Shown: positions 2,814 through 52,055 of the stretch, piece by piece
How positions within the stretch are numbered: the stretch's first letter is position 1
Layout of the letters: every line of letters begins with the position of its first letter
Program-made: the position numbers and the translations under genes
IMG/VR virus record: IMGVR_UViG_3300009548_000009
Span: 1 to 53,217 of that record
Strand: one strand, 5' to 3'
DNA from: a virus
Lineage: Duplodnaviria > Caudoviricetes
DNA length: 53,217 bases
The notes under the pieces: generated by a model
What the model saw: the letters and a program-made list of their open reading frames with translations, nothing else
Databases searched by the model: none
What the model was told of the DNA's origin: nothing

Positions 2814-3647
2814 CTAAAGTGATAGTTCTCCGTTAATAAACAACGGCTTTACGTCCTCGCTTACGCTTTCCTGTATCTCCTCATCGCTGAAATACTGCTC
2901 AACGTTCTCGCTGAACTCGCACATGTACTCTTGCCTGAACCACCACTCACCTAGAACGGCTTTTTCTTCTTTTAAAAAAGCTTTAGAGATTCGCGGGCAT
3001 TCGTAGGCTGTTACCTTAAAGCCCTGCCACCCACCTAGGTTATCAGTTACATAATCGTTCCAGGATTCGTAAAAGAAGCCTCTGCGTCCGAATGGTGTTG
3101 AAAGTAAAATTAATCGGCCTTGAGAAACCGCAAGCATTGGCCGTAAGGAGCCGTAATAGAGCTCATCATCCTCGATTTGTGCTGCTTCATCAATAATCAT
3201 CAGACTCGGCGCGCTGAACCCTCGCACTGTCTGCGGCTTGGATGGTAGGCTTATTATCCTGCTTCCATTCGTTAATTCTAACGTATGCTTATTCTCTGCA
3301 TCGCTCGGGACCGGCCTGCCACGTTCCTGGTAAAAATCTGCTACTTTCTTAAATAGTTCTGTTGATTGCCGGTATCCTCTGCTTATGATGAGCACAAGGG
3401 AGTTAGGATTGTAAAGGGCGCTGTGTAACGCTATTATAGCGGTTATTGTTGATTTGCCTGACTGCCTGGCACAATTCAATATTATCTTTTTTTCTTCTGA
3501 GGTGAGCAGTTTGCGCTGCCAAGGATCGGGGTCAATGCCGAGTAATTGAGCGAATTTGATCGGGTTGATAGCAAGAGCTAGTTCTTTGCGTTCGCTTTCG
3601 TTTAAGGTTAGGATTGCGTCGTCAAATCTACTAGTACTAATCGCCAT
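2814..3647 (-). CDS. terL: Terminase large subunit, ATPase domain only
   Basis: PWQ adenine motif, Walker A ARQSGKS, Walker B MIIDEAA, coupling motif LSTP, QEYMCEF. Ends at 277 aa with no nuclease domain. Confidence 0.92.
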   Translation of the reverse strand: MAISTSRFDDAILTLNESERKELALAINPIKFAQLLGIDPDPWQRKLLTSEEKKIILNCARQSGKSTITAIIALHSALYNPNSLVLIISRGYRQSTELFKKVADFYQERGRPVPSDAENKHTLELTNGSRIISLPSKPQTVRGFSAPSLMIIDEAAQIEDDELYYGSLRPMLAVSQGRLILLSTPFGRRGFFYESWNDYVTDNLGGWQGFKVTAYECPRISKAFLKEEKAVLGEWWFRQEYMCEFSENVEQYFSDEEIQESVSEDVKPLFINGELSL

Positions 3648-10477: not shown

Positions 10478-11254
10478 TTATTCTTCCCTACTAGACGTCA
10501 TCATTATCCCCATGAATTCAGCTTCAGTTTGTATTCCTTTTCGAGCATTGCATTCTCGACATGCGAGCGCTACATTCGTTATATCATTAGAGCCGCCGCG
10601 TGATATAGGGATCTTGTGTTCTATTTCAAAATAATATTCGAGAGTACCGTTAATAAAAAATGATGCCCCACAATAATAGCAGCGGTGATTTTGTTGATCG
10701 GCTAAAGCTAAGACGTCTTTTTGTTTAACCACACCTTCATTCTGACGCGCTTTTACTCTTCGTCGGTGCGTGGCAATCTTCTTAATTGCTGCATATTTAA
10801 TATGGTTCTTCTTTTTACTCTCTATCGCAGATAAATTATCTGCTTTTCTTTGGCAGTCGCTACAACGCTTTTTTAGCGGGCTTCGTGCCATTAATATTAT
10901 TCCACAATCAATGCATTTAATCTCTTTATGAAATGGTCCTTTGTAGTTGTATGTCCTTATATGAAAATTCCAAGCTTTTTCTGCAGATATAGCAGTTGAA
11001 CATGAATGACAATATCTTCTATTCTTACCAGGTCCTGATAAAAGCATTATAGTACCACATTTTACGCACGGCTTAATCCTCGGTAAGCGAGGTTTATAAT
11101 AATATTTTGAACCCCCTTCGCGTTCTCTTTTTGCTCGCATTAATTCTGCATTGACTTTCTTCCTACACTCATCGCAATATTTTCTGAGCTTTGAGCGCCA
11201 ATACAAAGTCATAACCTTGCCGCAGTGCTCACATGTTTTTATTAGCGGTTCCAT
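10478..11254 (-). CDS. HNH endonuclease with three N-terminal Zn-finger repeats
   Basis: CYYCG...IEHKIPISRGGSNDITNVALACRECNARKG; repeated CxxCG...(Y/R)CxxC. Confidence 0.88.
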   Translation of the reverse strand: MEPLIKTCEHCGKVMTLYWRSKLRKYCDECRKKVNAELMRAKREREGGSKYYYKPRLPRIKPCVKCGTIMLLSGPGKNRRYCHSCSTAISAEKAWNFHIRTYNYKGPFHKEIKCIDCGIILMARSPLKKRCSDCQRKADNLSAIESKKKNHIKYAAIKKIATHRRRVKARQNEGVVKQKDVLALADQQNHRCYYCGASFFINGTLEYYFEIEHKIPISRGGSNDITNVALACRECNARKGIQTEAEFMGIMMTSSREE

Positions 11255-12127
11255 CTATTCTTCCTCTGGTAGCGCCATGCTTGCCTCACCTAGTGCTGAT
11301 TCTTCCTCTTCTGGTGATAGTTCGCTTTCTTCTTCTGAGGGCCCCGTCGAATATTCTAAGACGCACATACAATTAATGGTTTCAGAAGCTGGGCCGCTTG
11401 GATCACCAGGATATGCCAAATCGCCGTCTTCAAGTTCAAAAACGTCATCTATTGCGATTTCTGTGCCTTCAATTTCCTCGTGGCTAGGGCGTGGGTTTCC
11501 AGATGTAGTCCACCAAATTTTTGTTGCTCCGTCTGGAAGCAAGTCTTTAGCAGTTTCATTGCTCGCGTAAGAATATGCCCCGTGCGTCTCAGTAGTCGCA
11601 ATTGTACGCGCCCTACTATCTGATACATTATCAAAATCATCTACTAGATCATCGGCTATCTCGTCCTGTGTCTTACCCTCACTTACACCGCTTCTTAACG
11701 TATTCGCTAACCACTCCTGGTCTGTGTCAGTTATCCCATCAATCTTAGTTCCTGCGTGCTGATCCATCCATTCATCTGCATAATCCTGATAATCCTTTTG
11801 AATTATTTCCTCTGTCTTTTTAACTGGATTATGATGTTCTTTTACAAAGTCTTCAGCTTCCTCAGCGGCGTTGAGCCATACTTGCTTGAGTGCTCGAGAC
11901 CACATAGGTTTAAAGTTCACTTTGAAGAATAACGGTAAGCCTTCTATCGCCATTTTTGGTGTCCTTGAACGGACATAGCGTAAAATCAAAGGTTTCTGTT
12001 TGCGATAGACGGCGCGTATGATATTGTAGTTCTGACCGCCGTGAAACGCTCCTTTAGAGTCTTCACGTCCTATGATATTGTTCATGAGGAGTTTATGCCT
12101 GTGGATCAAGTTGGTTTTGCTTGCCAT
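11255..12127 (-). CDS. Minor head protein, Mu gpF/SPP1 gp7 family
   Basis: RARTIATTET, KIWWT...RPSH and YPGDPSG...ETINCMC motifs. Confidence 0.88.
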   Translation of the reverse strand: MASKTNLIHRHKLLMNNIIGREDSKGAFHGGQNYNIIRAVYRKQKPLILRYVRSRTPKMAIEGLPLFFKVNFKPMWSRALKQVWLNAAEEAEDFVKEHHNPVKKTEEIIQKDYQDYADEWMDQHAGTKIDGITDTDQEWLANTLRSGVSEGKTQDEIADDLVDDFDNVSDSRARTIATTETHGAYSYASNETAKDLLPDGATKIWWTTSGNPRPSHEEIEGTEIAIDDVFELEDGDLAYPGDPSGPASETINCMCVLEYSTGPSEEESELSPEEEESALGEASMALPEEE

Positions 12128-21137: not shown

Positions 21138-21560
21138 TCAATAATTTCCGTGTCGTTCGTTTTTTCTCCCATTATAATAATCTCTAGCCTTTTCTTCCGT
21201 GATCCAACCAGTAGAGATCAATTCAGTTACTCGACCGTACGGTGGCTTAAATCCTTTATACGTCGTGTGAGTTGGGTTTTGGCAGCGTGTATGGTCGCAG
21301 CATACAAAAAGCTTACGTCTGTCTGGTAGCGTGTACCATGTTGTCAAAAAGAGATATCTGCGAATTTGAACGTATCTCCCTTGACCATCATCTGTCTCCA
21401 CCATCTCCTTAGTTAGATAAAGTTGACCTGTATCGTCCTTATCTTTCAGAGTCCAACACCCTGGTTCAAAACATCCGTCTATCCTATCTCGCAGCTCTTT
21501 TCTTATCCGGACGTGGTTTTGTTCGGAGAGTCCCGGTCTAAGTCGGAAGATATTTGCCAT
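21138..21560 (-). CDS. His-Me finger (HNH-like) protein, possibly degenerate
   Basis: CW...RRYLF...CCDHTRCQNPTH resembles the C-x3-C-x-NP-x-H Zn loop. Start moved to MANIF, about 25 nt after a TATA box. Confidence 0.55.
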   Translation of the reverse strand: MANIFRLRPGLSEQNHVRIRKELRDRIDGCFEPGCWTLKDKDDTGQLYLTKEMVETDDGQGRYVQIRRYLFLTTWYTLPDRRKLFVCCDHTRCQNPTHTTYKGFKPPYGRVTELISTGWITEEKARDYYNGRKNERHGNY

Positions 21561-21584
21561 AAATATTAGTGTGTGCTGATTATA

Positions 21585-21801
21585 TATAAAAGAGTTGCAA
21601 ATCTGTAAATCTGTACCGACTCCGCGAAGCAATCTCCTCCTAACGAAAGTGATATTCAGATGTGCGTGCTATTTACCAACTTATTTATAGTATAAAATAC
21701 AATAACAAACGAAGGATTTTTTTGATTAACTTACTCACTCTTTTTTTGAGAGGGGTCTTTCGGAAGCTAACACAGGTTTACAGATTTGTAACTTTTTTAT
21801 A
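21585..21801. promoter_or_regulatory. 30-bp inverted repeat forming twin divergent TATA-containing promoters
   Basis: 21585-21614 and 21772-21801 are inverted copies (27/30) of ACAGRTTTACAGATTTGYAACTYTTTTATA. Confidence 0.7.
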
Positions 21802-36999: not shown

Positions 37000-37652
37000 T
37001 TATCTTGAGCCTTTTTTCGCTTCCCGCTCCATCCTCGCGAGCTCTTCTGCTTGTTCTTCGCCTCTCACGTCGTAATAGACCCGCCACAACATTAGTTCCT
37101 CAGTGGTCATATAGAGCACTTCGCGGACGGTCTTGTGAAGTTCGCCTGCTAAATCAAATATGAACCTCAACCACGTGTTTTGCGAAAATCCTCGCGTGAC
37201 TGTGCCAGTTCAGCCTGTGAAAGCCCTGAAAGGCTGTCTGCTACGTTGCCCAAGAGATCAATAATACCAGGGTGCTTCTGAGCGAGCATGTCGTGGTCTG
37301 CAGCGGTGAACAGCTTTGATCCTGTTGCTGGGTCGAACGCGCACTTGATTACTATTTCAATATTAGACCATTCCTTGACTGCGCTTATAGGCACGCCGTT
37401 CTGGAACTTGATCTGCGCTTTCTGCTGCAACTCTGCCCAATCACCAGCCGTAAGGCTCTTCATGAGCACTTCTGCATCGTCCCACCAGGGCACTTTGACC
37501 AGCTCTTGGCGTCGGTCATTGACGTTCAGGATGCGGTCGCGTAGTGATAATCGTGTAGCTGGCTTTGCGTCGATCTTCTTTTGCTCTTCCATCTTCTTCT
37601 GCTTCTCTGGGCATTCTGGACAATCGTCGTCTTCTACTTTTTTATCTACCAA
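37000..37652 (-). CDS. Tail assembly chaperones G (37167-37652) and G-T via -1 frameshift (to 37000)
   Basis: G GAT TTT at 37185-37191; the -1 frame reads ...RFIFDLAGELHKTVREV...EELMLW.VYY...GSR*. Confidence 0.82.
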
Positions 37653-42670: not shown

Positions 42671-43861
42671 CTACTCAAACGAAGACGAAACGCAGCCGTC
42701 CAGGAAGTAGCCAAGGTCTTGAGCAATAAGTTCCATGCCCATTGCCATCTCAGCTTCCATCCTCATGGCGCGTCTCCACTCCAGCCTAAAGTTCCTGACA
42801 GCGAACCAACCAGCTCCACCAGAGCCAACGATGTCCTGATACGGGCTGCCTGAGCTGAGGTAACCGTTCCATCCGAACATATACCCCGCAGAGGGAGTCA
42901 GTATTGAAGGGTTCGGGTTCGAGTAACAAAGGAGCGCGTCTTTACCGTAAGCGAATCCCATTGTTGGCGATGCCGATGCACCTTCCGCAGCAGTGTTGAC
43001 GACACACATCGGGATAATGACCCTGTCAACTGAAAATACTTGAGCAAGGGCCTGCTCCGAGATGACTGCCGGACTGCCTGGAGTTCCACCGTACTTAATC
43101 CTTTCCAGGATCTCAGGGTGAACAATCAGCGCCTCGTAGACTTCTGGTCCGATAACCAGGGTGTTCGGCACAAAGCCGGTTGCCATCGCCATCTCAAGTC
43201 TGTACTTTCGCACATCTTCAATAGGCGTTGAGTTTACCTGGTCGTCCCAGTAGACGAAGTCTTTCGTGGTCGCTACATACTCGGTGTTCGTTCCGCCGTC
43301 TACTTCGTTTGTCCACACAGAGTCGGTAAAGTAGTTCGTGACAAACTGCATCTCTCGTGCGAGGAGGAGCTTCTGTGTCAAGAACAGCGAAATATCCCGC
43401 TGCATGTTGAGCGGAGCGTCTGCGTTAGCTGCAACCATGTCACCGAGGTCAACGTGAAGGCCCCACACATCACAGATGTATGTGTTCGTCATGTCGAGCC
43501 CGTAGCCGGTTCCTGCCGTTTCCGCGCCGTCTAGTCTAACCTTAGCCTCATTCGTGAACCAGTAGTCTTTAGTGTACGAGACATAGTAATCCGACTTTTT
43601 CATTACAGGAATAAGCGGAAATATCTCGGCTGCCCTAAAGTTTTGCTGGCTCTGGATGTAGGCGATGCTGAACATCGTGTTTGGAACGTTAACGTGTACA
43701 TCGAACACAGTGGGCTGAGACTTCTTGAGTTGAACCTCATTTGGCATTGTCCATGCCTCATAAGGACTCTCAATATAGCCCGCCTTCGTGAGTCGCTGTG
43801 CGGCTCCATAGAGACCTAGGTTAGGTGTTGGCGAGGCAAAGTTTCTGAAATTTGTTGCCAT
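42671..43861 (-). CDS. Major capsid protein (HK97 fold, lambda gpE-like)
   Basis: SIAY.Q...F.A.EIFP..PV.K.SD.Y, W.D..NSTPIEDV, PNTLVIG..VYEAL..HP and PSAGY.F motifs; position. Confidence 0.92.
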   Translation of the reverse strand: MATNFRNFASPTPNLGLYGAAQRLTKAGYIESPYEAWTMPNEVQLKKSQPTVFDVHVNVPNTMFSIAYIQSQQNFRAAEIFPLIPVMKKSDYYVSYTKDYWFTNEAKVRLDGAETAGTGYGLDMTNTYICDVWGLHVDLGDMVAANADAPLNMQRDISLFLTQKLLLAREMQFVTNYFTDSVWTNEVDGGTNTEYVATTKDFVYWDDQVNSTPIEDVRKYRLEMAMATGFVPNTLVIGPEVYEALIVHPEILERIKYGGTPGSPAVISEQALAQVFSVDRVIIPMCVVNTAAEGASASPTMGFAYGKDALLCYSNPNPSILTPSAGYMFGWNGYLSSGSPYQDIVGSGGAGWFAVRNFRLEWRRAMRMEAEMAMGMELIAQDLGYFLDGCVSSSFE

Positions 43862-44696: not shown

Positions 44697-45704
44697 TTAC
44701 TGCCTCCCCGCTGTTAGGTTGCGCTGAAGGACTTGGTTGTATCCTTCTGGGTCTGCGTGTACGATGTCAGTATACGCCTGTTCATACGTGACGCCGCTCT
44801 TTTGTACTCTCTCCTGTGCCAGTGCGTCCCACCTTGTAAGCGGATCTGAGGCATCGGCTTCGAGCGCGCTACCGTACTCGGCAAAAAGATCACCTTTCCG
44901 TAGCATCTCCTCGTGAGCGTCGAGCAGGTGAATGAAGCTCTGGAATCCCTTTTCACTGAGGTTGTCAGCGGCTTCCTTCATAAGAGCAACAAAGTCTGCG
45001 CCCTTGGCGATGCGCGTATATTGCGCCGCCTTCTGGACAAAGACTCGCTCCCTGTCTGCCTCTTCCATCTTCCTGATACGCTCTTCAAGGGCAAACTTCT
45101 CGCGCCATAGCGGTCGGACTGCCTTTTGAACGTCCTCGGGGAGAAGGTCGAGATCTTCCTCTTTCTCAATTTTCTCGAGGGCTTTTTCTATACTTTTCTT
45201 CATTTTTCTAGCCTTGGACTTCTTAGCGCCGTCACCGTCTTCTTCCTCATCGTCATCTCCATCCTCGCCGTCATCTCCATCATCTCCGTCTCCGTCAGAA
45301 GGTTTTCCCTTCCCTTTCTTGAAACCGGAGAGCGCAGCGACTCTTTCAAAAACGTCGTCTGGAAGAACTTCAGCGACACTCTTTGTGAGCTTCATGATGC
45401 CCGTTAGGGCCTCAGTCGCTTCAGGTGGCAGCCCTTTGAATTCCTTTTCAATAACTTCACCGTCGGGCGTATCCTGTTTGAGTACGTCGATGGCGAAGGC
45501 TGCTTCTTGTTCTTGATCCATAAAATTAGATCCTGATGTGCGCTTACCAGCTGACTTAACCAAGTGAAGCTTTTTCTGGTTTGCACCCCGCGTAACGAGA
45601 TGCACGCTCTCTACTTTAGTATCGGTCAGCTCAGTGTCTTTTTCTAGATGTATCTGTAGATTAGCAAGGCTAGGTGCGTCATTTGTATCGACTTTATCGT
45701 TCAC
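44697..45704 (-). CDS. Scaffolding protein with N-terminal protease-completing strand
   Basis: LTDTKVESVHLVTRGAN...LVKS, acidic linker, coiled coils and terminal GVTYEQAY...P..Y. Confidence 0.75.
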   Translation of the reverse strand: MNDKVDTNDAPSLANLQIHLEKDTELTDTKVESVHLVTRGANQKKLHLVKSAGKRTSGSNFMDQEQEAAFAIDVLKQDTPDGEVIEKEFKGLPPEATEALTGIMKLTKSVAEVLPDDVFERVAALSGFKKGKGKPSDGDGDDGDDGEDGDDDEEEDGDGAKKSKARKMKKSIEKALEKIEKEEDLDLLPEDVQKAVRPLWREKFALEERIRKMEEADRERVFVQKAAQYTRIAKGADFVALMKEAADNLSEKGFQSFIHLLDAHEEMLRKGDLFAEYGSALEADASDPLTRWDALAQERVQKSGVTYEQAYTDIVHADPEGYNQVLQRNLTAGRQ

Positions 45705-45721: not shown

Positions 45722-46225
45722 TCAGTTATTACGCTTAACGCGCACACCTGTTCCGTCGATGCTATATGCGCCGAACTCACCGCTCTGCGCACGCTTCCAA
45801 AGAGCATCGTTTATTGCGGTAAACAGCACCCAGGAGCCTTTTATTATATGTTCGCCATCGACGACCATATCAACGGGCGCGATGAAGCTCTCCACAGGCG
45901 TCGCCTCGGACTGACTCACCAGTTTTTCGTGGTGGGTTCCAATCCTGCTGCTGTTGGCGAGGTATTCGTGCGCAACCTTCCGCAATTCATCGGGACGTAT
46001 AAAGTCCCCTTGCGTGTCGGTCTTGCAGACATCGCCAGAGTTGCAGGGTTCGTAAACAACACCCCACACGAGATGGTCTGTCCCTTTCAACAGGCGGGCC
46101 GTGTAGTGCCAGGCCGCTGCTTGTTTTTCTATCGTTTCAAAATTCTTTTTTGAGTATTTAAGTATTGCTTGTACCTTTACAGGTGCTTGTACCTTTACAG
46201 GACGCCTTGCTAGTTTTTTCGGTAT
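45722..46225 (-). CDS. Prohead maturation protease domain, XkdF-like (frame open from 46225, no ATG upstream of the domain)
   Basis: VWGVVYEP, DTQGDF, H, VESFIAP, KGSWV and SGEFGAYSIDG. Confidence 0.88.
   Translation of the reverse strand: MPKKLARRPVKVQAPVKVQAILKYSKKNFETIEKQAAAWHYTARLLKGTDHLVWGVVYEPCNSGDVCKTDTQGDFIRPDELRKVAHEYLANSSRIGTHHEKLVSQSEATPVESFIAPVDMVVDGEHIIKGSWVLFTAINDALWKRAQSGEFGAYSIDGTGVRVKRNN
46166..46201. repeat. Perfect 18-bp tandem duplication (PVKVQA x2 in the protease frame)
   Basis: TGCTTGTACCTTTACAGG twice. Confidence 0.95.
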
Positions 46226-47508
46226 CTAGCTTCAAGAGCCTTTGACACCTGTAACCTTTTCCTTTGAAGCTCATCCTTTGTCCTCGGCGTGTATAATGAA
46301 TTAGGATGAGGCATCGTAAATTCAACGTCCCTTTCCAGTGCTTTCTTGACCGTGTGGCCCAGCGCGATTATCGGGATTTTGCGCTTAGACTTTGATCCGG
46401 CTTCTACTTTTGCCAGCTCATCCCTAAACCAGGGTTGCCACGATTCAATCTCATCAACTGTAGGTTCTCTGACTTTTCCGCTCTCGTCTTTGAGCAGTTG
46501 CGGCACGAGGTAAGTTATAACCACATTATCTCGCGTCAGTCCTAAAGGCGTTAGGTATTCGTCGTTGAATATCTTGCCAGTAGATCCTACTAACGCCGAT
46601 TTCCTGATTGACTCTACTTCTCCAGGTGAAGCTGCTACGAAGGTAAGAATGGGCCGCTTTCCGATGAAGGTTGGCACGTCAGATTTCTTAACGCTCTTCT
46701 TAGCCTTCTCCTTCAATTTCATGCAGTTGGTTTTCACCTTTTCACAATCCGCATCTGCCTCTTCAGCGGTTTCCTTCGCTATATTATCCGGTGCATCCTC
46801 GCCGATGTCCTTATAATACGACCGAAGCGTTGCTTTCATTGAATCCAACTCTGACGCTGGGATTCCACTAGATTGGTTGATCCTGCCGGCTGCAGCTGCG
46901 AGTCCTACCCTGCTTATCTGGAACTTGCCGTTGATTATGTCAGCTACTGGAAACTTGTAGCCGCCTGCGTTGTCTGCGTTGTCTGGGTCGTGATATAGGA
47001 ATCCTTTACCGTACTTCTGCCAGTCTACGTTTTCCTTATCTGGACCGCCTGCCCATGCTAAAAGCCTCTTTTGTGCAGCTCCAGCATCCCATGAGCCCGT
47101 AGAGGCTACAGGTGCGTCCTGCTTCCCATGTGCTGTCTTTTCCATTTTCTTGTTATCTCTACATTTTTGCGTGTCTTGTTCCTCGCACGCTCCGTCAGCT
47201 TTACCATCATCGTCGTCGTCTTCATCTACTCCAGATGGGAGTGGCTGTTTGTTAACCTCTGCGCTCACTTCTGCTTGTGTATCCTGTGCCTGGTGCGCTT
47301 CTGTGGCTGCCTGCGTGTCGGCAGATTGTGACTGCGCCTGCGCCGCTCGTGCCTTAGCGCTTGCCTTTCCACCAGCACGCGGCAGGGCCTTTCTGTGTAG
47401 ATCATTCATTACGTGCGGAGGAACATACTGCCGCACTGCGTCAAGTAGTTCACTTATGTATTCCGGTGAATACTCCTTTTGTTTCGCTTCCTTTTCTAAA
47501 TCATCCAT
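46210..47508 (-). CDS. Multidomain head-module protein: low-complexity N-terminus, phage head-associated domain, UDG-family-4-like domain
   Basis: WDAGAA.KR...GYKFPVADII.G domain; then FVAASPG..E.....LVGSTGK...GLTRDNVVIT...REPT.DEI...IIALG...PHP. Confidence 0.75.
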   Translation of the reverse strand: MDDLEKEAKQKEYSPEYISELLDAVRQYVPPHVMNDLHRKALPRAGGKASAKARAAQAQSQSADTQAATEAHQAQDTQAEVSAEVNKQPLPSGVDEDDDDDGKADGACEEQDTQKCRDNKKMEKTAHGKQDAPVASTGSWDAGAAQKRLLAWAGGPDKENVDWQKYGKGFLYHDPDNADNAGGYKFPVADIINGKFQISRVGLAAAAGRINQSSGIPASELDSMKATLRSYYKDIGEDAPDNIAKETAEEADADCEKVKTNCMKLKEKAKKSVKKSDVPTFIGKRPILTFVAASPGEVESIRKSALVGSTGKIFNDEYLTPLGLTRDNVVITYLVPQLLKDESGKVREPTVDEIESWQPWFRDELAKVEAGSKSKRKIPIIALGHTVKKALERDVEFTMPHPNSLYTPRTKDELQRKRLQVSKALEARYRKN

Positions 47509-47554: not shown

Positions 47555-48526
47555 TCAAACATAAAATGGCCTGAACGTTACCGTAAATTCTGTTATTCCT
47601 TCCTCATCAACCCCCATAGTTATAAAATGATAACCAGTATGATTGGCCAACCGCTTGCTTCGCATCCATCTGGATTGTGTCGATAGCGCCCCGCCGCTTA
47701 CAGCATGGATATGGCGTTCAAAGAAATACCCCTGTTTGTGGCTATGTCCCATAAGCAAGACATGCGGTTTTTCTCCTCCGGTGAAGGATTCGATGAGTTT
47801 CTGAACCCGATATGATGTAGCATAACTTGATCCGTCCTCCCCGTGAAAAACACGTATCAATACCCCACTAATTTCTATATCGCCTTCATCACGCCCGATA
47901 TACTCCATATTTGGGACAGACTCACATACATCTTCTACGATGTTCGCGCCCATTGCTTCATACCACCTGTCATGATTGCCAGAGATCAGATACGTATGAA
48001 ACGGTATTTTTGATAGTTGTTCTTCAGCGTACGCTTTCTGTGCTGCGTACCCAATATCTCTTAATTCATAAATTAAATTATATTTTCTTGGGTCCATCCC
48101 ATGTGTAAGGTCCCCGCCAAATATGCAAAACTGAGCCTTTCGTTTTTTGCATGTTTGTATAAAATCATCCAAGAACTCCTCGTGATAATAGATGCTTGAC
48201 ATATGGGCGTCAGTAAAGTACCCAAAGCGTATTTCCTCTCCTGAATGGCCTATCTTTACTTTTGGGGGCGTTACAGAGAATGAGCCAAGACCTTTACCCT
48301 TGCTTATTGCCGCTAGTTCTTCAGCGGTGTATTTGCCGTGGATTCCTTCTAGGTAACGGACCCCCCGTTTTCTTTGCCTAAAGCTCCGCGTCCATTCGTT
48401 TTTGTACTCACGCTCTTTTTCTCGGTTCTCTACACGATACAATCTACATGCTTCTCGGCACGCATCGCACGTTTTAAACCCACCTGACTCGATCGGTTTA
48501 TTGCAGCGGGAGCAATGTTCTGTCAT
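47555..48526 (-). CDS. Calcineurin-like metallophosphoesterase with N-terminal Zn finger
   Basis: DAH, GGD, GNHD, FHG and GHSH motifs; CSRC...CDAC. Confidence 0.9.
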   Translation of the reverse strand: MTEHCSRCNKPIESGGFKTCDACREACRLYRVENREKEREYKNEWTRSFRQRKRGVRYLEGIHGKYTAEELAAISKGKGLGSFSVTPPKVKIGHSGEEIRFGYFTDAHMSSIYYHEEFLDDFIQTCKKRKAQFCIFGGDLTHGMDPRKYNLIYELRDIGYAAQKAYAEEQLSKIPFHTYLISGNHDRWYEAMGANIVEDVCESVPNMEYIGRDEGDIEISGVLIRVFHGEDGSSYATSYRVQKLIESFTGGEKPHVLLMGHSHKQGYFFERHIHAVSGGALSTQSRWMRSKRLANHTGYHFITMGVDEEGITEFTVTFRPFYV

Positions 48527-48775: not shown

Positions 48776-50269
48776 TTATTCCATCCGACACCCTACATAC
48801 CCATCTGGTTTTTCTCCCCACCAACGACGCCACTGTTCGCCATGCTCCCTTAATTGATTAAATATCTCATCTTCTGTGAGGGCGTTATACTTACGTCGGA
48901 CTTCTTCCACTCCTGGTAGTTTTGATGCTTTCATTATAAAATCTAACGCGAAGTCTCGTTCTTCCGTCGTTGGATCTTTAAAGCAAATGATAAAGTTGCC
49001 AGTATTCATTAACTTTATCTGACCATCCCCATCAGAAGGAAGTTTCTTTTGTTCAGATATTACAGTAATTGACATTATCTTCCCTTCTTAATCGGCCTCT
49101 GCGGTTTCTTTGATGCAGCCACTCTGAAGAAATCAGCCTCGCTCATTGGCTGGCCGCCTACAGTAAACCCCTCGCCCTCTGCTATCGCTCCAAGCTTCGG
49201 AAGTATCGGGAGTGGTTTATCGTGGAGCATGCTCGCTGGGTTTGATGAAGTCATTGCCTGCCTGCGCTGGTTTAAGCGGCTTAGGTTCTTAATCAACTCA
49301 TCATCAGGCTCTTGCCTTTCTGGTCTGGGAATGTCAACCAACATCGCTTTTCGTATATCGTTGTTACGTTCCATCTCCTCGTCGTGGAGCGTTAACAGAT
49401 AATCAAGCGCCGTATCGTCGTTTATTGGCATCTTTGAGTAGACTGCTTTCTCGGCAGCCGTTACGCCTGGCCGGTTAAGCAAAGAAGAACGCATGCCTTC
49501 TAGCATCGTGTGCCAGTGGACGAGTAAATCTCCAGTTATTTTTAATGTGATCGGTTTGAACGTGCGACGTTTTGCCGCCTTCTCCATCTTCTTAGTAGCT
49601 TCCTCAATAATCTTTAGGTCTGCCTCCTCTTTGAGTGCAGCAAAAGCATCTATTGGCGGTGGTGGTTCTTTCACCATACGCTGAAGAAAGTCGCCTACTA
49701 AAGACTTCTCACTCACTTCTGGTTCTGGTTCAATCCCTTGCACTACGTCAATGACTATCTCTTCTTTAGGTTCAGGTTTAACTTCGGGTTTAACTTCAGG
49801 CTTAGGTTTCGTTGCTTTCTTTTTTGGCATTAGTTCCTCCTAGGTTAAAAGTGGAATACAAAGTGCGCTATGAGTATCCAGAGTATCGGATACACGAAGA
49901 TCATGAACAGCGCAAATAGCGTATTTCTGGTTTGGTTCTCTGGTTGTTCTGGTAACCCTTTTTTTCTCTCTCCAAGTAGCATTTCAAATCCTTCCTTCTC
50001 TGAATCAGTGAGCGGTCGCGTTGCGTCTCCGTCCTTTATGACTGATATATCTATCAGGTCTTTTGTGTTTACTAGGACCCTATGAAGTGACTCAAGGTTG
50101 ATAGTTTCTCCAAATTCGTTTTTCATCTTAACTTCAGCTCCCGAAACGGGCAGTTATTTACATGCATCTTTAAATCCCGTTTCAGCTCCTTTACTTCGTT
50201 TTCAAGTTTTAAGAGCACCTGTTGCATCTCCATTTCGGTAAGAAGGTTAGCTGCTTTATTAGTGGGCAT
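48776..50269 (-). CDS. Four hypothetical ORFs (48776-49075; 49075-49830; 49845-50126 with C-terminal TM; 50123-50269)
   Basis: Coupled minus-strand ORFs downstream of the portal. Confidence 0.65.
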
Positions 50270-52055
50270 TTTTCTTTTTCTTCTTTTTCTTAGGTTGTGT
50301 TTGTTCTAAGCCCTGGACATATGCAATACTAAAATCCTCATTGGGCCGGTTTACGTGGACATCTAAAACCGTCGGCTGGCTCTTTTTAGCTGGCAGCGGT
50401 TTGCCCCATGTATCTGTTTGTCCACGATACGGCGTCTCCTCGTTTATCGGCTGAGATCGTTCTCGAGCTGCAGCTGCAGTCTGCCCAGGCAGCAACGAAT
50501 CTACCGGCGTGGCCAATGGGCTTTCCGGTTCCGGTTCCTTTGGCAAGTGTATCAGATCCCATAGGGCGTTTCTAAACGTCACGTCATCTGGGATTGGCAC
50601 TCCGCCCCGGGCGACGTTGCTTAGGAATGTACCCACGTCATTGATCTCTGCGCTTGCTACGTCGCCATGCACAAGTTTAGGCAATGATTCGGGGTTTATA
50701 TCAGGATTGAGTTGCGCGAGTCGTGGAACAGCGTATGAGTTGAATACCTGGCAAATTGAATCCAATATCGCGCTTATTGAAATTGAAAAGAGATTATTTC
50801 TTGTTTCAGCAAGGGCGTATGATCCTGTCGTATCCTGGCCAAGCATAAGAAAATCAGCAAGGACAGTCATTGCTATCCATTTGCTAAACATCTGGATTAT
50901 GCCAACAATGTCAAACTGTCTTTGTGACTGCGGACCTGCTAGTTCTAAACTATACATTGGGCCGCCGCCTACATCAGAAGGATAATTGTTTGATGGTAGA
51001 AGTATGCCTTCGTCTTGGTTTCGCTTGAGATTGCGAACTATCCGTTTTAACATCTCTGCCATTGCTGATGAACGTGCATCGACTCCGGTTAGTACCTCAC
51101 CAGGAGCACGCAAGACAGGAACGCCTGCCATATCACGTTCTAGTCCTGTCATCATAATCTCTTCAGCCAGCTTTTTGAACATATATGTTCTATATGCCCC
51201 ACGCAAAAGACTCACACCTTCTGGGTTGCCCTTTCGAGGTTTAACTCGGAACAATAACAGTTTCTCTATCGGTATTTCAGTAATCCTAAAGTGAGGTGGA
51301 GCAAGTTGTCTGAATCCTCGTATGCCGCCGTTAACGTCAAAGTCCCAGTTTAATAGTGTTTCCTGGGCCCTAGTAGCAAACTTCCTCCAGCCTATTCTCC
51401 CATCATCAAAGTTGCTATTTAATGTCGGATCTTCTGGATGTGGCCCCTCTCGTTTCTTATAGACTATTTCTGAGATATGATAACCGAAGATAAACATGCT
51501 AAGAACCTCAGAAAGCAGATCATTTGGATTAACACTCATATCCTCCCAGCATTGTTGGTAAAATTCCAATGCTTTTAAGTCCTCAGGAGTAGAACCGTCA
51601 GTTTCCCACCAGAGGTTTACTGATCTGCATGACATCTCGACCGCATAAAAGATTGATGATATGACGGCATCCATCATGTACATCTCTTTGTACATACGGA
51701 CGCCGCGAGTGTATTGAAGTTCAGTCAGCCACTCCTCATACACGTAGGGAGGAATGTACATTAAGCCGGTCGTGCCGTACTCTGCGAAGTAGTTGAGGTT
51801 AACCGGAGCACCAGGTGACGAGGGGCCTATTCCCATGAGGTCGCCTGAGCCGAGCGTGGGCAAGCCCTGGGCAGTGAACGGCATCTCTTGTAAATCAATA
51901 AGTTTCTTTATGGTTGCCTGTTCAGACTTGGACAGCTTTTCAAACGCTGCGCTTTCTGATTCAGTAAATGATGTTATTCCGTTCGGGGGACTTTCGGGAA
52001 ATGAGGTTATCCCGTTCGGTTCCGTATTATTTTTCTTTATATTTTTTCGAGCCAT
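50259..52055 (-). CDS. Portal protein (Mu gp29/DUF935-like)
   Basis: Y.EM...D..I, GYHISEIVYK, GNPEGVSLLR.AY, ERD.AGVPV, GSYALA and VPRL..LN; follows the terminase nuclease. Confidence 0.92.
   Translation of the reverse strand: MARKNIKKNNTEPNGITSFPESPPNGITSFTESESAAFEKLSKSEQATIKKLIDLQEMPFTAQGLPTLGSGDLMGIGPSSPGAPVNLNYFAEYGTTGLMYIPPYVYEEWLTELQYTRGVRMYKEMYMMDAVISSIFYAVEMSCRSVNLWWETDGSTPEDLKALEFYQQCWEDMSVNPNDLLSEVLSMFIFGYHISEIVYKKREGPHPEDPTLNSNFDDGRIGWRKFATRAQETLLNWDFDVNGGIRGFRQLAPPHFRITEIPIEKLLLFRVKPRKGNPEGVSLLRGAYRTYMFKKLAEEIMMTGLERDMAGVPVLRAPGEVLTGVDARSSAMAEMLKRIVRNLKRNQDEGILLPSNNYPSDVGGGPMYSLELAGPQSQRQFDIVGIIQMFSKWIAMTVLADFLMLGQDTTGSYALAETRNNLFSISISAILDSICQVFNSYAVPRLAQLNPDINPESLPKLVHGDVASAEINDVGTFLSNVARGGVPIPDDVTFRNALWDLIHLPKEPEPESPLATPVDSLLPGQTAAAARERSQPINEETPYRGQTDTWGKPLPAKKSQPTVLDVHVNRPNEDFSIAYVQGLEQTQPKKKKKKKNAH

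Follow-up and report, generated by a model that had tools for sequence, protein, structure and literature searches.

A probable programmed -1 frameshift joining a UDG-fold head-module protein to an XkdF-type protease domain in a siphovirus-like clade

How does a tailed phage make a head protease whose coding region has no recognizable start of its own? This question is raised by a locus in IMG/VR record IMGVR_UViG_3300009548_000009, which we analyzed as a whole (53,217 bp, completeness estimate 93%, 46% G+C; hereafter the window). On the minus strand of the window, an open reading frame (ORF) of 432 amino acids (aa), here called ORF1, ends in ...AGA TAC CGA AAA AAC TAG, and an XkdF-type (PF14550) protease domain follows in the -1 frame. 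Because the domain lacks a start of its own and lies in the -1 frame behind a conserved slippery run, the protease is most likely made by ribosomes that slip back one base. From comparative sequence evidence we consider it probable (roughly 0.72) that ORF1 and the protease form one translational unit, joined through programmed -1 ribosomal frameshifting, with a minor product of about 595 aa.

The junction and its relatives

The features of the locus are listed below from upstream to downstream. ORF1 contains an accessory domain and a domain with a uracil-DNA glycosylase (UDG) fold; domain boundaries come from an AlphaFold2 (AF2) model, with its predicted local distance difference test (pLDDT) values.

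46210-47508, minus strand: ORF1, 432 aa, ending in RYRKN followed by TAG (ORF list; Pfam UDG; AF2; 29 homologous clusters)
46774-47136, minus strand: accessory domain, ORF1 residues 125-245 (WDAGAAQ...YKFPVADIINGKF...), pLDDT 81-93
46216-46671, minus strand: UDG-fold domain, ORF1 residues ~280-431, whose last helix (408-431) runs into the slippery site
46226-46228, minus strand: TAG in the -1 frame, which limits entry into that frame to the heptamer and the 6 nucleotides (nt) before it
46213-46219, minus strand: slippery heptamer A AAA AAC in X XXY YYZ phase, its first A being the third base of CGA; proposed -1 shift site
46210-46212, minus strand: zero-frame stop TAG directly 3' of the heptamer; TGA in all relatives
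46111-46213, minus strand: linker in the -1 frame (LARRPVKVQAPVKVQAILKYSKKNFETIEKQAAA), predicted to be disordered, containing an 18-bp duplication (46166-46201)
45725-46129, minus strand: XkdF-type (PF14550) protease domain in the -1 frame; the predicted fold begins near residue 31-33, numbering from the heptamer
45722-45724, minus strand: TGA, stop codon of the -1 frame

The -1 frame opens at 46225, 6 nt upstream of the heptamer, and ends at 45724-45722, 165 codons when counted from the heptamer. It reads KK-LARRPVKVQAPVKVQAILKYSKKNFETIEKQAAAWHYTARLLKGTDHLVWGVVYEP... through the duplication into the PF14550 domain, and the predicted fusion has 432 + 163 = 595 aa. A preliminary description, made from the letters of the window alone, had reported CGA AAA AAC TAG with this heptamer at the end of the 432-aa ORF, a -1 frame opening at 46225 and running without a stop into an XkdF-like protease, an in-frame duplication encoding PVKVQA twice, and a protease lacking an upstream ATG and a clear ribosome-binding site before a TTG at 46090. 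Each of these was recovered on the minus strand, the duplication as a perfect tandem, and GTG and TTG were found to be missing upstream as well. An in-phase X XXY YYZ motif directly before a stop occurs in one of the 68 window ORFs, and AAAAAAC is rarer in the window than expected (6 occurrences versus 15.1 +/- 4.1 in shuffled sequences). A second in-phase AAAAAAC (21159-21165), located 18 nt before the stop of ORF 21138-21632, was attributed to chance; its -1 tail extends for about 27 codons with no gene behind it.

Most genes in the window start with an ATG preceded by a GGAG/GAGG-type motif. Between 46225 and the TTG at 46090, the -1 frame contains no ATG, GTG, or TTG over 43 codons, and no GGAG/GAGG-type motif is present in the 18 nt before that TTG. 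The TTG (46090-46088) encodes residue 44, inside the predicted fold and behind the strand formed by residues 33-42. Two related contigs (L010 and L057) carry a free-standing protease gene; their proteases start after GAGGA, 7 codons before a conserved Trp (MTDTDATWQY..., MNTKETTWHY...), and the homologous segment of the window, WHYTARLL, lies upstream of the TTG. Judged from the alignment and the model, a start at this TTG would delete the conserved first strand. The preliminary description had named a separate transcript with a TTG start as one outcome that would speak against a frameshift, and pointed to a TTAAATA box. TTAAATA is present at 46161-46155; no promoter-like site was found on the minus strand in 46090-46260, and the counts of the promoter and terminator scan of the window are at chance level.

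Viral and metagenome collections, searched with ORF1, with the -1 product, and with alignments of both, yielded 30 distinct related contigs once three IMG/VR-JGI pairs of identical length had been merged as duplicates. The junction is covered by 27 of the 30, giving 28 junctions together with the window. Protein identity to the window in this set ranges from 41 to 99%. The states of the junction are as follows.

25 of 28 junctions (window included): AAAAAAC with an immediate stop, protease in the -1 frame
1 of 28 (L050, 2.6 kb): one extra A, continuous frame ...EARYQKKLMRRPEK...
2 of 28 (L010, L057): heptamer absent

The 25 heptamer junctions represent 10 different junction sequences from many samples, at protein identities to the window of 99%, 80%, 77%, 62-68%, and 41-52%. 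The final C of the heptamer and the stop directly behind it are kept in 25 of these 25. The contig with the extra A (L050:190-200) has 8 A versus 7 A in ten sibling loci (nine distinct contigs); the additional A may be genuine or may stem from a homopolymer error.

ORF1 was aligned by codon across five lineages; of the 369 codons without gaps, 8.7% have the same third base throughout. The final four (TAC CGA/CAA AAA AAC) do so in 4 of 4 cases, a pattern seen in 1 of 366 windows of the alignment, and the longest invariant nucleotide run in the gene is 7 nt long and is the heptamer itself. Where the Arg before the heptamer is replaced by Gln, the codon changes from CGA to CAA, so that the A required for the slip is kept. 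As read from this alignment, the heptamer is conserved beyond the needs of the protein.

The linkers behind the heptamer point in the same direction. Six variants have lengths of 93, 102, 102, 105, 108, and 324 nt, all multiples of 3; none contains a stop in the -1 frame, whereas each other frame contains 2-8. The motif L-x-[R/K/Q]-R-P is conserved right from the first codon after the slip. These patterns indicate that translation of the linker proceeds in the -1 frame, beginning with the first post-heptamer codon. Among Logan contigs of other runs, one (X2) is identical to the window over 45941-46450, junction included; two others (X3, depth 35.8, and X4) carry a linker variant of the type found in L001. 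In this variant (L001:2664-3380 and X3/X4, corresponding to window 46174-46211), 260 nt stand in place of 38 linker nt, which adds 74 codons and preserves the frame, and the insert gives sub-threshold winged-helix hints (Penicillinase_R, E 0.097).

The heptamer is absent from exactly those two contigs in which the protease has its own GAGGA and ATG. In L010, an HNH endonuclease gene (L010:4390-4917) lies between the ORF1 homologue and the protease, and the ORF1 homologue has a different C-terminus, ...SLIARKQSKR. In L057, about six tandem CTAGAGAC units (L057:1700-1790) lie between the ORF1 homologue and the free-standing protease gene. The protease start regions of the two contigs are alike, so the two cases may reflect one evolutionary event.

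Single-ORF homologues and the domains on both sides

Among the 29 clusters homologous to ORF1, 8 end in EARY[R/Q]KN, and one (P0040, 568 aa) contains both PF03167 and PF14550. Residues 94-360 of P0040 match ORF1 residues 129-428 (34% identity, 3e-41), and residues 408-506 match residues 49-156 of the -1 product (32% identity, 3e-14); both parts are collinear, with a linker between them. The P0040 gene (L097:3992-5707; also in L098, which has a different sample id) contains neither a stop nor a slippery heptamer at the corresponding junction. It is flanked by terminase and portal (phrog_113) genes and by scaffold-like genes and a capsid gene (phrog_1005), the same families as in the head module of the window.

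With P0040 as the query, phmmer retrieved 3,521 matches at E <= 0.001 from 1.84 billion representatives (50% identity clusters). Among the best 150 of these, 41 contained both domains in a single aligned stretch (proteins within P0041-P0186). PF03167 precedes PF14550 in 41 of 41, and the UDG match reaches the Pfam cut-off in 37 of them. Additional domains occur in seven, a 2H/LigT-type phosphoesterase in six and ChaB in one (P0057, P0071, P0111, P0140, P0156, P0173, P0143). By these matches, a single ORF with UDG followed by XkdF is the common state elsewhere, in at least 41 protein clusters. An earlier word search for long fused proteases had returned 11 matches, all of them XkdF-scaffold proteins of 363-401 aa without UDG; this false negative was overturned by P0040 and the phmmer search. 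No paper on the UDG-XkdF pair was found in the open-access literature.

The fusion of ORF1 and protease is thus supported by the conserved heptamer and stop, the linkers open in the -1 frame, the mutual exclusion of heptamer and own start, and the collinear single ORFs. The proposal of the preliminary description that recoding joins the two frames drew support from every comparative test that we ran.

The protease assignment of the -1 product rests on several matches. PF14550 is matched by residues 49-162 of the 167-aa -1 translation (E 6.6e-25, 88 bits versus a cut-off of 24), and the product matches phrog_3017, head maturation protease (1.5e-28). In an AF2 model built from 31 sequences (mean pLDDT 66), residues 1-38 are disordered (pLDDT < 50), and the first strand spans residues 33-42. 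The best VIA-align match of the model is the T4 gp21 prohead protease (5jbl_A; Z 7.9, root-mean-square deviation 3.1, 111 residues, model range 31-165), with a Z just below the safe level of the tool; the next row, a herpesvirus protease, has Z 3.7. A Foldseek search of the model against the PDB gave no match at E <= 0.001. D68, H97, S111, and S153, numbered from the heptamer, are invariant in 31 XkdF-domain sequences. The protease frame is free of stops across lineages down to 51% identity, with strong Pfam matches throughout. We take the XkdF domain to be a putative prohead protease, which may be active.

The AF2 model of ORF1 (29 sequences, mean pLDDT 74) consists of N-terminal helices, a disordered part (58-123), and two confident domains (125-245 and 280-431). 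The C-terminal domain matches PF03167 at residues 288-411 (26.5 bits versus a cut-off of 24.3) and PDB entry 4zbx in phmmer (E 5.5e-4); Foldseek matches are to family-4 UDG/UdgX (E 5e-8 to 1e-7, TM by target 0.5-0.6). Family-4 UDGs are defined by the motif G-E-[AG]-P-G and by iron-sulfur cysteines. FVGEAPGE of 4zbx aligns with FVAASPGE in ORF1 (GEAPG to AASPG), and at the CKKC and KCR positions of 4zbx ORF1 has one Cys alone. The second domain thus has a UDG fold, and since neither the GEAPG motif nor the cluster cysteines are matched, glycosylase activity is doubtful.

No Pfam family was matched by ORF1 residues 1-253 or parts of them; DUF6582 turned up solely as an Atlas lead and, weakly, in the distant relative L064. 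In tblastn searches the accessory domain (ORF1 ~111-250) matched proteins of the Thermus phage Riverbug, annotated as head maturation protease (E 5e-13), and of the Streptomyces phage Mischief19, annotated as capsid maturation protease and MuF-like fusion protein (3e-7). Its structural look-alikes in the Atlas are S78, Mu-like_Pro (HK97-type and Mu-type), and MuF clusters (TM by query 0.68-0.90), which we take as a lead only. Six records of cultured phages matched, all by the accessory domain alone, and none of them has the UDG-XkdF pair or the junction. Its occurrence inside annotated phage proteases implies that the accessory domain normally travels with a protease. As far as these homologies reach, both ORF1 domains usually travel with a protease.

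Mechanism and competing explanations

We propose that most ribosomes would stop at the TAG after CGA AAA AAC and release the 432-aa protein with its accessory and UDG-fold domains. A minority would slip by -1 on A AAA AAC, probably aided by a pause at the adjacent stop, through tandem -1 slippage of the Lys and Asn tRNAs or through P-site slippage with the stop waiting in the A site. The slipped ribosomes would read CTA GCA AGG..., pass through a flexible linker of ~34 residues, and enter the XkdF protease, the junction of the fusion being ...RYRKN-LARRPVK. If the slip is the sole route, the protease exists in this phage only as a C-terminal extension of ORF1. It would then be present at a fixed low ratio, tethered to domains that share one polypeptide with it in most relatives. 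Its presumed targets, once the procapsid has assembled, would be the scaffold and capsid proteins whose genes follow directly downstream. We infer that the slip is ribosomal rather than transcriptional, with an efficiency that leaves the fused form the minor one; the fusion may serve both the stoichiometry and the targeting of the protease.

Several observations weigh against this proposal. No conserved downstream RNA structure was found when the 53 and 90 nt behind the heptamer were folded in four lineages; z values relative to shuffled sequences are -0.34 and 0.06 for the window and 1.0 and 0.3 for the 80% group. In the 41-52% group, a 6-bp G+C hairpin (GGCGGC/GCCGCC; z -2.2) lies 6 nt behind the heptamer, and a GAGG precedes the heptamer by 10 nt; in the clade of the window there is neither a stimulator hairpin nor a Shine-Dalgarno (SD)-like GAGG, and the adjacent stop is the sole conserved flanking element. 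In an excerpt of PMC5009743, A_AAA_AAC is described as much less shift-prone than A_AAA_AAG in E. coli, so the efficiency of the shift may be low. The Lys-Asn pair lies at the end of a helix in the AF2 model, and some amino acid constraint on AAA AAC is to be expected. The survey of the A run rests on contigs, which minority A-run variants would escape. The name protease is based on a Pfam family called putative, a PHROG label, gene order, and the fold match at Z 7.9. The free-standing protease is viable in the relatives L010 and L057. In the 41-52% group, an ATG located 9 nt after the heptamer overlaps the stops (TGATGA), and coupled re-initiation of the protease is possible there; most contigs with 6 A (L001, the 80% group, the 62-68% group, and L037) have ATA there, at best a very weak start.

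The last two of these points, like the missing RNA structure, would suit an explanation without any fusion, in which the protease is made alone by re-initiation after the ORF1 stop, from a weak linker codon (ATA) or the TTG at 46090, and the A run is an unstructured S1-binding leader. We consider this unlikely. The window has GCA at the position in question, followed by no usable start within the 43 codons surveyed above, and the junction is unchanged in X2; the TTG comes without an SD motif and at the cost of the first strand, and a separate promoter was not detected in 46090-46260. Re-initiation also leaves unexplained why nucleotide conservation in ORF1 peaks at the heptamer and why the linker is coding from the first post-heptamer codon in all lineages, and the UDG-XkdF single ORFs show the fused form as the common state.

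RNA polymerase slippage on the 6 (or 7) A could add an A to some transcripts and give ...RYRKK-LARRP... in one frame. A conserved A run and a fused product would be expected here too, with Lys instead of Asn at the junction; slippage of this kind does not need an RNA stimulator, in agreement with the absence of one, and the extra A in the DNA of L050 marks the run as prone to polymerase slippage. Efficient transcriptional slippage in bacteria involves runs of ~9 or more A or T, and 6-7 A is short by this measure. The kept final C, the adjacent stop in 25 of 25 junctions, and the X XXY YYZ phase are required by tandem slippage on the ribosome alone. We therefore rate polymerase slippage lower than a ribosomal shift and regard it as distinctly improbable. 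That the junction is an artefact or a dead gene, with an assembly error hiding a 7-A in-frame fusion (an alternative raised by the preliminary description) or a decaying, unexpressed protease, is very improbable: one more A would indeed give a continuous ORF, as in L050, but the run has the same length in 25 of 28 junctions with 10 different flanking sequences from many samples, it is free of indels in Logan contigs from four other runs, the protease frame is intact down to 51% identity with strong Pfam matches, and no other head protease was matched in the window, where the ORF labeled as a peptidase by phrog_16701 (132-938) lies outside the head module.

Programmed -1 ribosomal frameshifting thus remains the best explanation of the junction. 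In distant XkdF loci (L062, L072, L078, L085, L058, L095), the protease is C-terminal to NUDIX and methyltransferase domains, a histidine phosphatase, a 2H/LigT phosphoesterase, or ChaB, and the 2H/LigT phosphoesterases in XkdF ORFs give weak Acb1-like matches. From their domain composition, these ORFs look like enzymes tethered to a head protease. A more speculative scenario, which we put forward tentatively and hold to be doubtful as a whole, is that an ancestral single-ORF cargo-protease head protein was converted in this peat-soil siphovirus clade into a pair resembling Gag/Gag-Pro. The shift, at a fixed few per cent, would be the sole route to the protease, would set its copy number per procapsid, and would deliver it by tethering. 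More broadly, XkdF domains might be self-removing C-terminal modules that load varied enzymes (UDG-fold, 2H/Acb1-like phosphoesterases, NUDIX, methyltransferases, histidine phosphatases, ChaB) into capsids, from which these could be delivered with the DNA.

Genome setting and comparison with known systems

The sequence of the window was found in metagenomes from peat, wetland, and pond. Almost all of its genes are on the minus strand, and PHROG and Pfam scans reveal a siphovirus-like layout. In order along the minus strand, the head module and its surroundings are as follows.

Window, minus strand: small terminase, then large terminase split by an HNH gene (PHROG/Pfam scans)
50259-52055, minus strand: portal (phrog_113)
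Between portal and ORF1: several small genes and a metallophosphatase (47555-48526)
44697-45704, minus strand: acidic scaffold-like protein, 335 aa, GTG start; next gene after the protease domain
Between the scaffold-like gene (44697-45704) and the major capsid gene: 273-aa gene (ORF list)
42671-43861: major capsid protein (phrog_1005 major head protein, 6.6e-64)
Beyond the major capsid gene: head-tail and tail genes, including tail chaperone and tape measure (PHROG/Pfam scans)

Within the head module, the protease domain thus has the portal gene on one side and the scaffold-like and capsid genes on the other. The order protease, scaffold-like gene, 273-aa gene, capsid gene is repeated in L010 and L097.

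The large terminase is apparently interrupted, with an N-terminal part at 2814-3647 (phrog_7579), an HNH endonuclease ORF at 2352-2786, and a 348-aa ORF without a PHROG match at 935-1981. A MuF-like head morphogenesis gene (11255-12127, phrog_2468) is distant from the head module and lies beside another HNH endonuclease (10478-11254). The tail chaperone ORF (37167-37652, phrog_344) ends in ...GAT TTT CGC AAA ACA CGT GGT TGA on the minus strand; its -1 frame is open for ~60 codons to 36998, ahead of the tape measure, which is the usual G/GT arrangement, and the sole shift-prone motif noticed is the tetramer T TTT C. A scan of genome contigs for a host returned no prophage relative and one weak accessory-domain match in a Bacteroidetes metagenome-assembled genome; we assign no host.

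If confirmed, the frameshift would mean that phages, like retroviruses, use recoding to fix the protease dose per particle, carried by a partner protein. As for annotation, gene callers either overlook this protease or assign it a false TTG start, and the partner is labeled uracil-DNA glycosylase. The clade forms a natural comparison set, with frameshift, one-A in-frame, uncoupled forms with their own ribosome-binding site, and ancestral-type single-ORF forms, and could be used to measure the effect of the ratio of free partner to fused protease on head assembly. The occurrence of a UDG fold before XkdF in at least 41 clusters also raises the question of what role a glycosylase fold has in the procapsid.

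In tailed phages, the programmed frameshift of the tail chaperone is textbook knowledge, and such shifts have also been described in some capsid genes. Like the tail assembly chaperone G/GT, the locus would be a programmed -1 shift in a phage morphogenesis module with a short major and a long minor product, and the window itself has a G/GT-type pair (37167-37652 plus extension). In contrast to the locus described here, G/GT belongs to the tail rather than the head genes, and its extension is not an enzyme. The E. coli dnaX site combines an upstream GAGG-like element, an A-rich heptamer, and a downstream hairpin, and the shift shortens the product. The 41-52% group resembles this layout, with its GAGG 10 nt upstream, A-rich heptamer, and hairpin 6 nt downstream; the heptamer here ends in C and not in G, the clade of the window lacks both flanking elements, and the shift lengthens the product.

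The single-ORF UDG-XkdF proteins (P0040 and 40 further clusters) agree with the locus in their domains, domain order, and approximate linker length, and P0040 also shares the accessory domain and the portal and capsid families. They differ in having one continuous frame, so that all protease molecules are fused there, whereas in the window a stop and a change of frame intervene at 46210-46219. In Riverbug and Mischief19, ORF1 residues ~111-250 match inside polypeptides annotated as proteases; the matched part is without a UDG-fold domain, and no frameshift is annotated.

The insA-insB' site of IS1 has the same heptamer, A_AAA_AAC, as the window junction, and the stop of its upstream ORF lies near the heptamer. 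It differs in making the transposase of a bacterial insertion sequence; proteins and purpose are unrelated to the pair in the window. In the portion of PMC4066793 that concerns IS1, the frameshift at A_AAA_AAC is described as proven and a stimulator as not established, and the weak motif suits low amounts of fusion product. With a similarly weak motif, a low-level shift is to be expected at the junction in the window as well. Excerpts of other papers describe a predicted tail-gene site in phage KL1, GGGAAAC immediately before TGA (PMC3483164), the use of A_AAA_AAC in the g-t genes of a haloarchaeal virus (PMC5009743), and its place among the most shifty heptamers on mammalian ribosomes (PMC5009743).

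A further parallel is retroviral, in that a particle-bound protein would be extended by a maturation protease with the same logic and the same heptamer. In retroviral gag-pro, for example in mouse mammary tumor virus, a -1 shift at this heptamer appends the maturation protease to the particle protein in a fixed minority of products. Gag-pro differs in its eukaryotic ribosomes, strong pseudoknot stimulators, aspartic protease, and unrelated proteins, and the likeness is one of analogy, not homology. No frameshift into a head-maturation protease was described in the open-access papers searched, in agreement with the preliminary description, which knew of no such case. The kind of event is known, both as -1 shifts in phage morphogenesis genes and as proteases delivered in fused form; its use for a head protease appears to be new.

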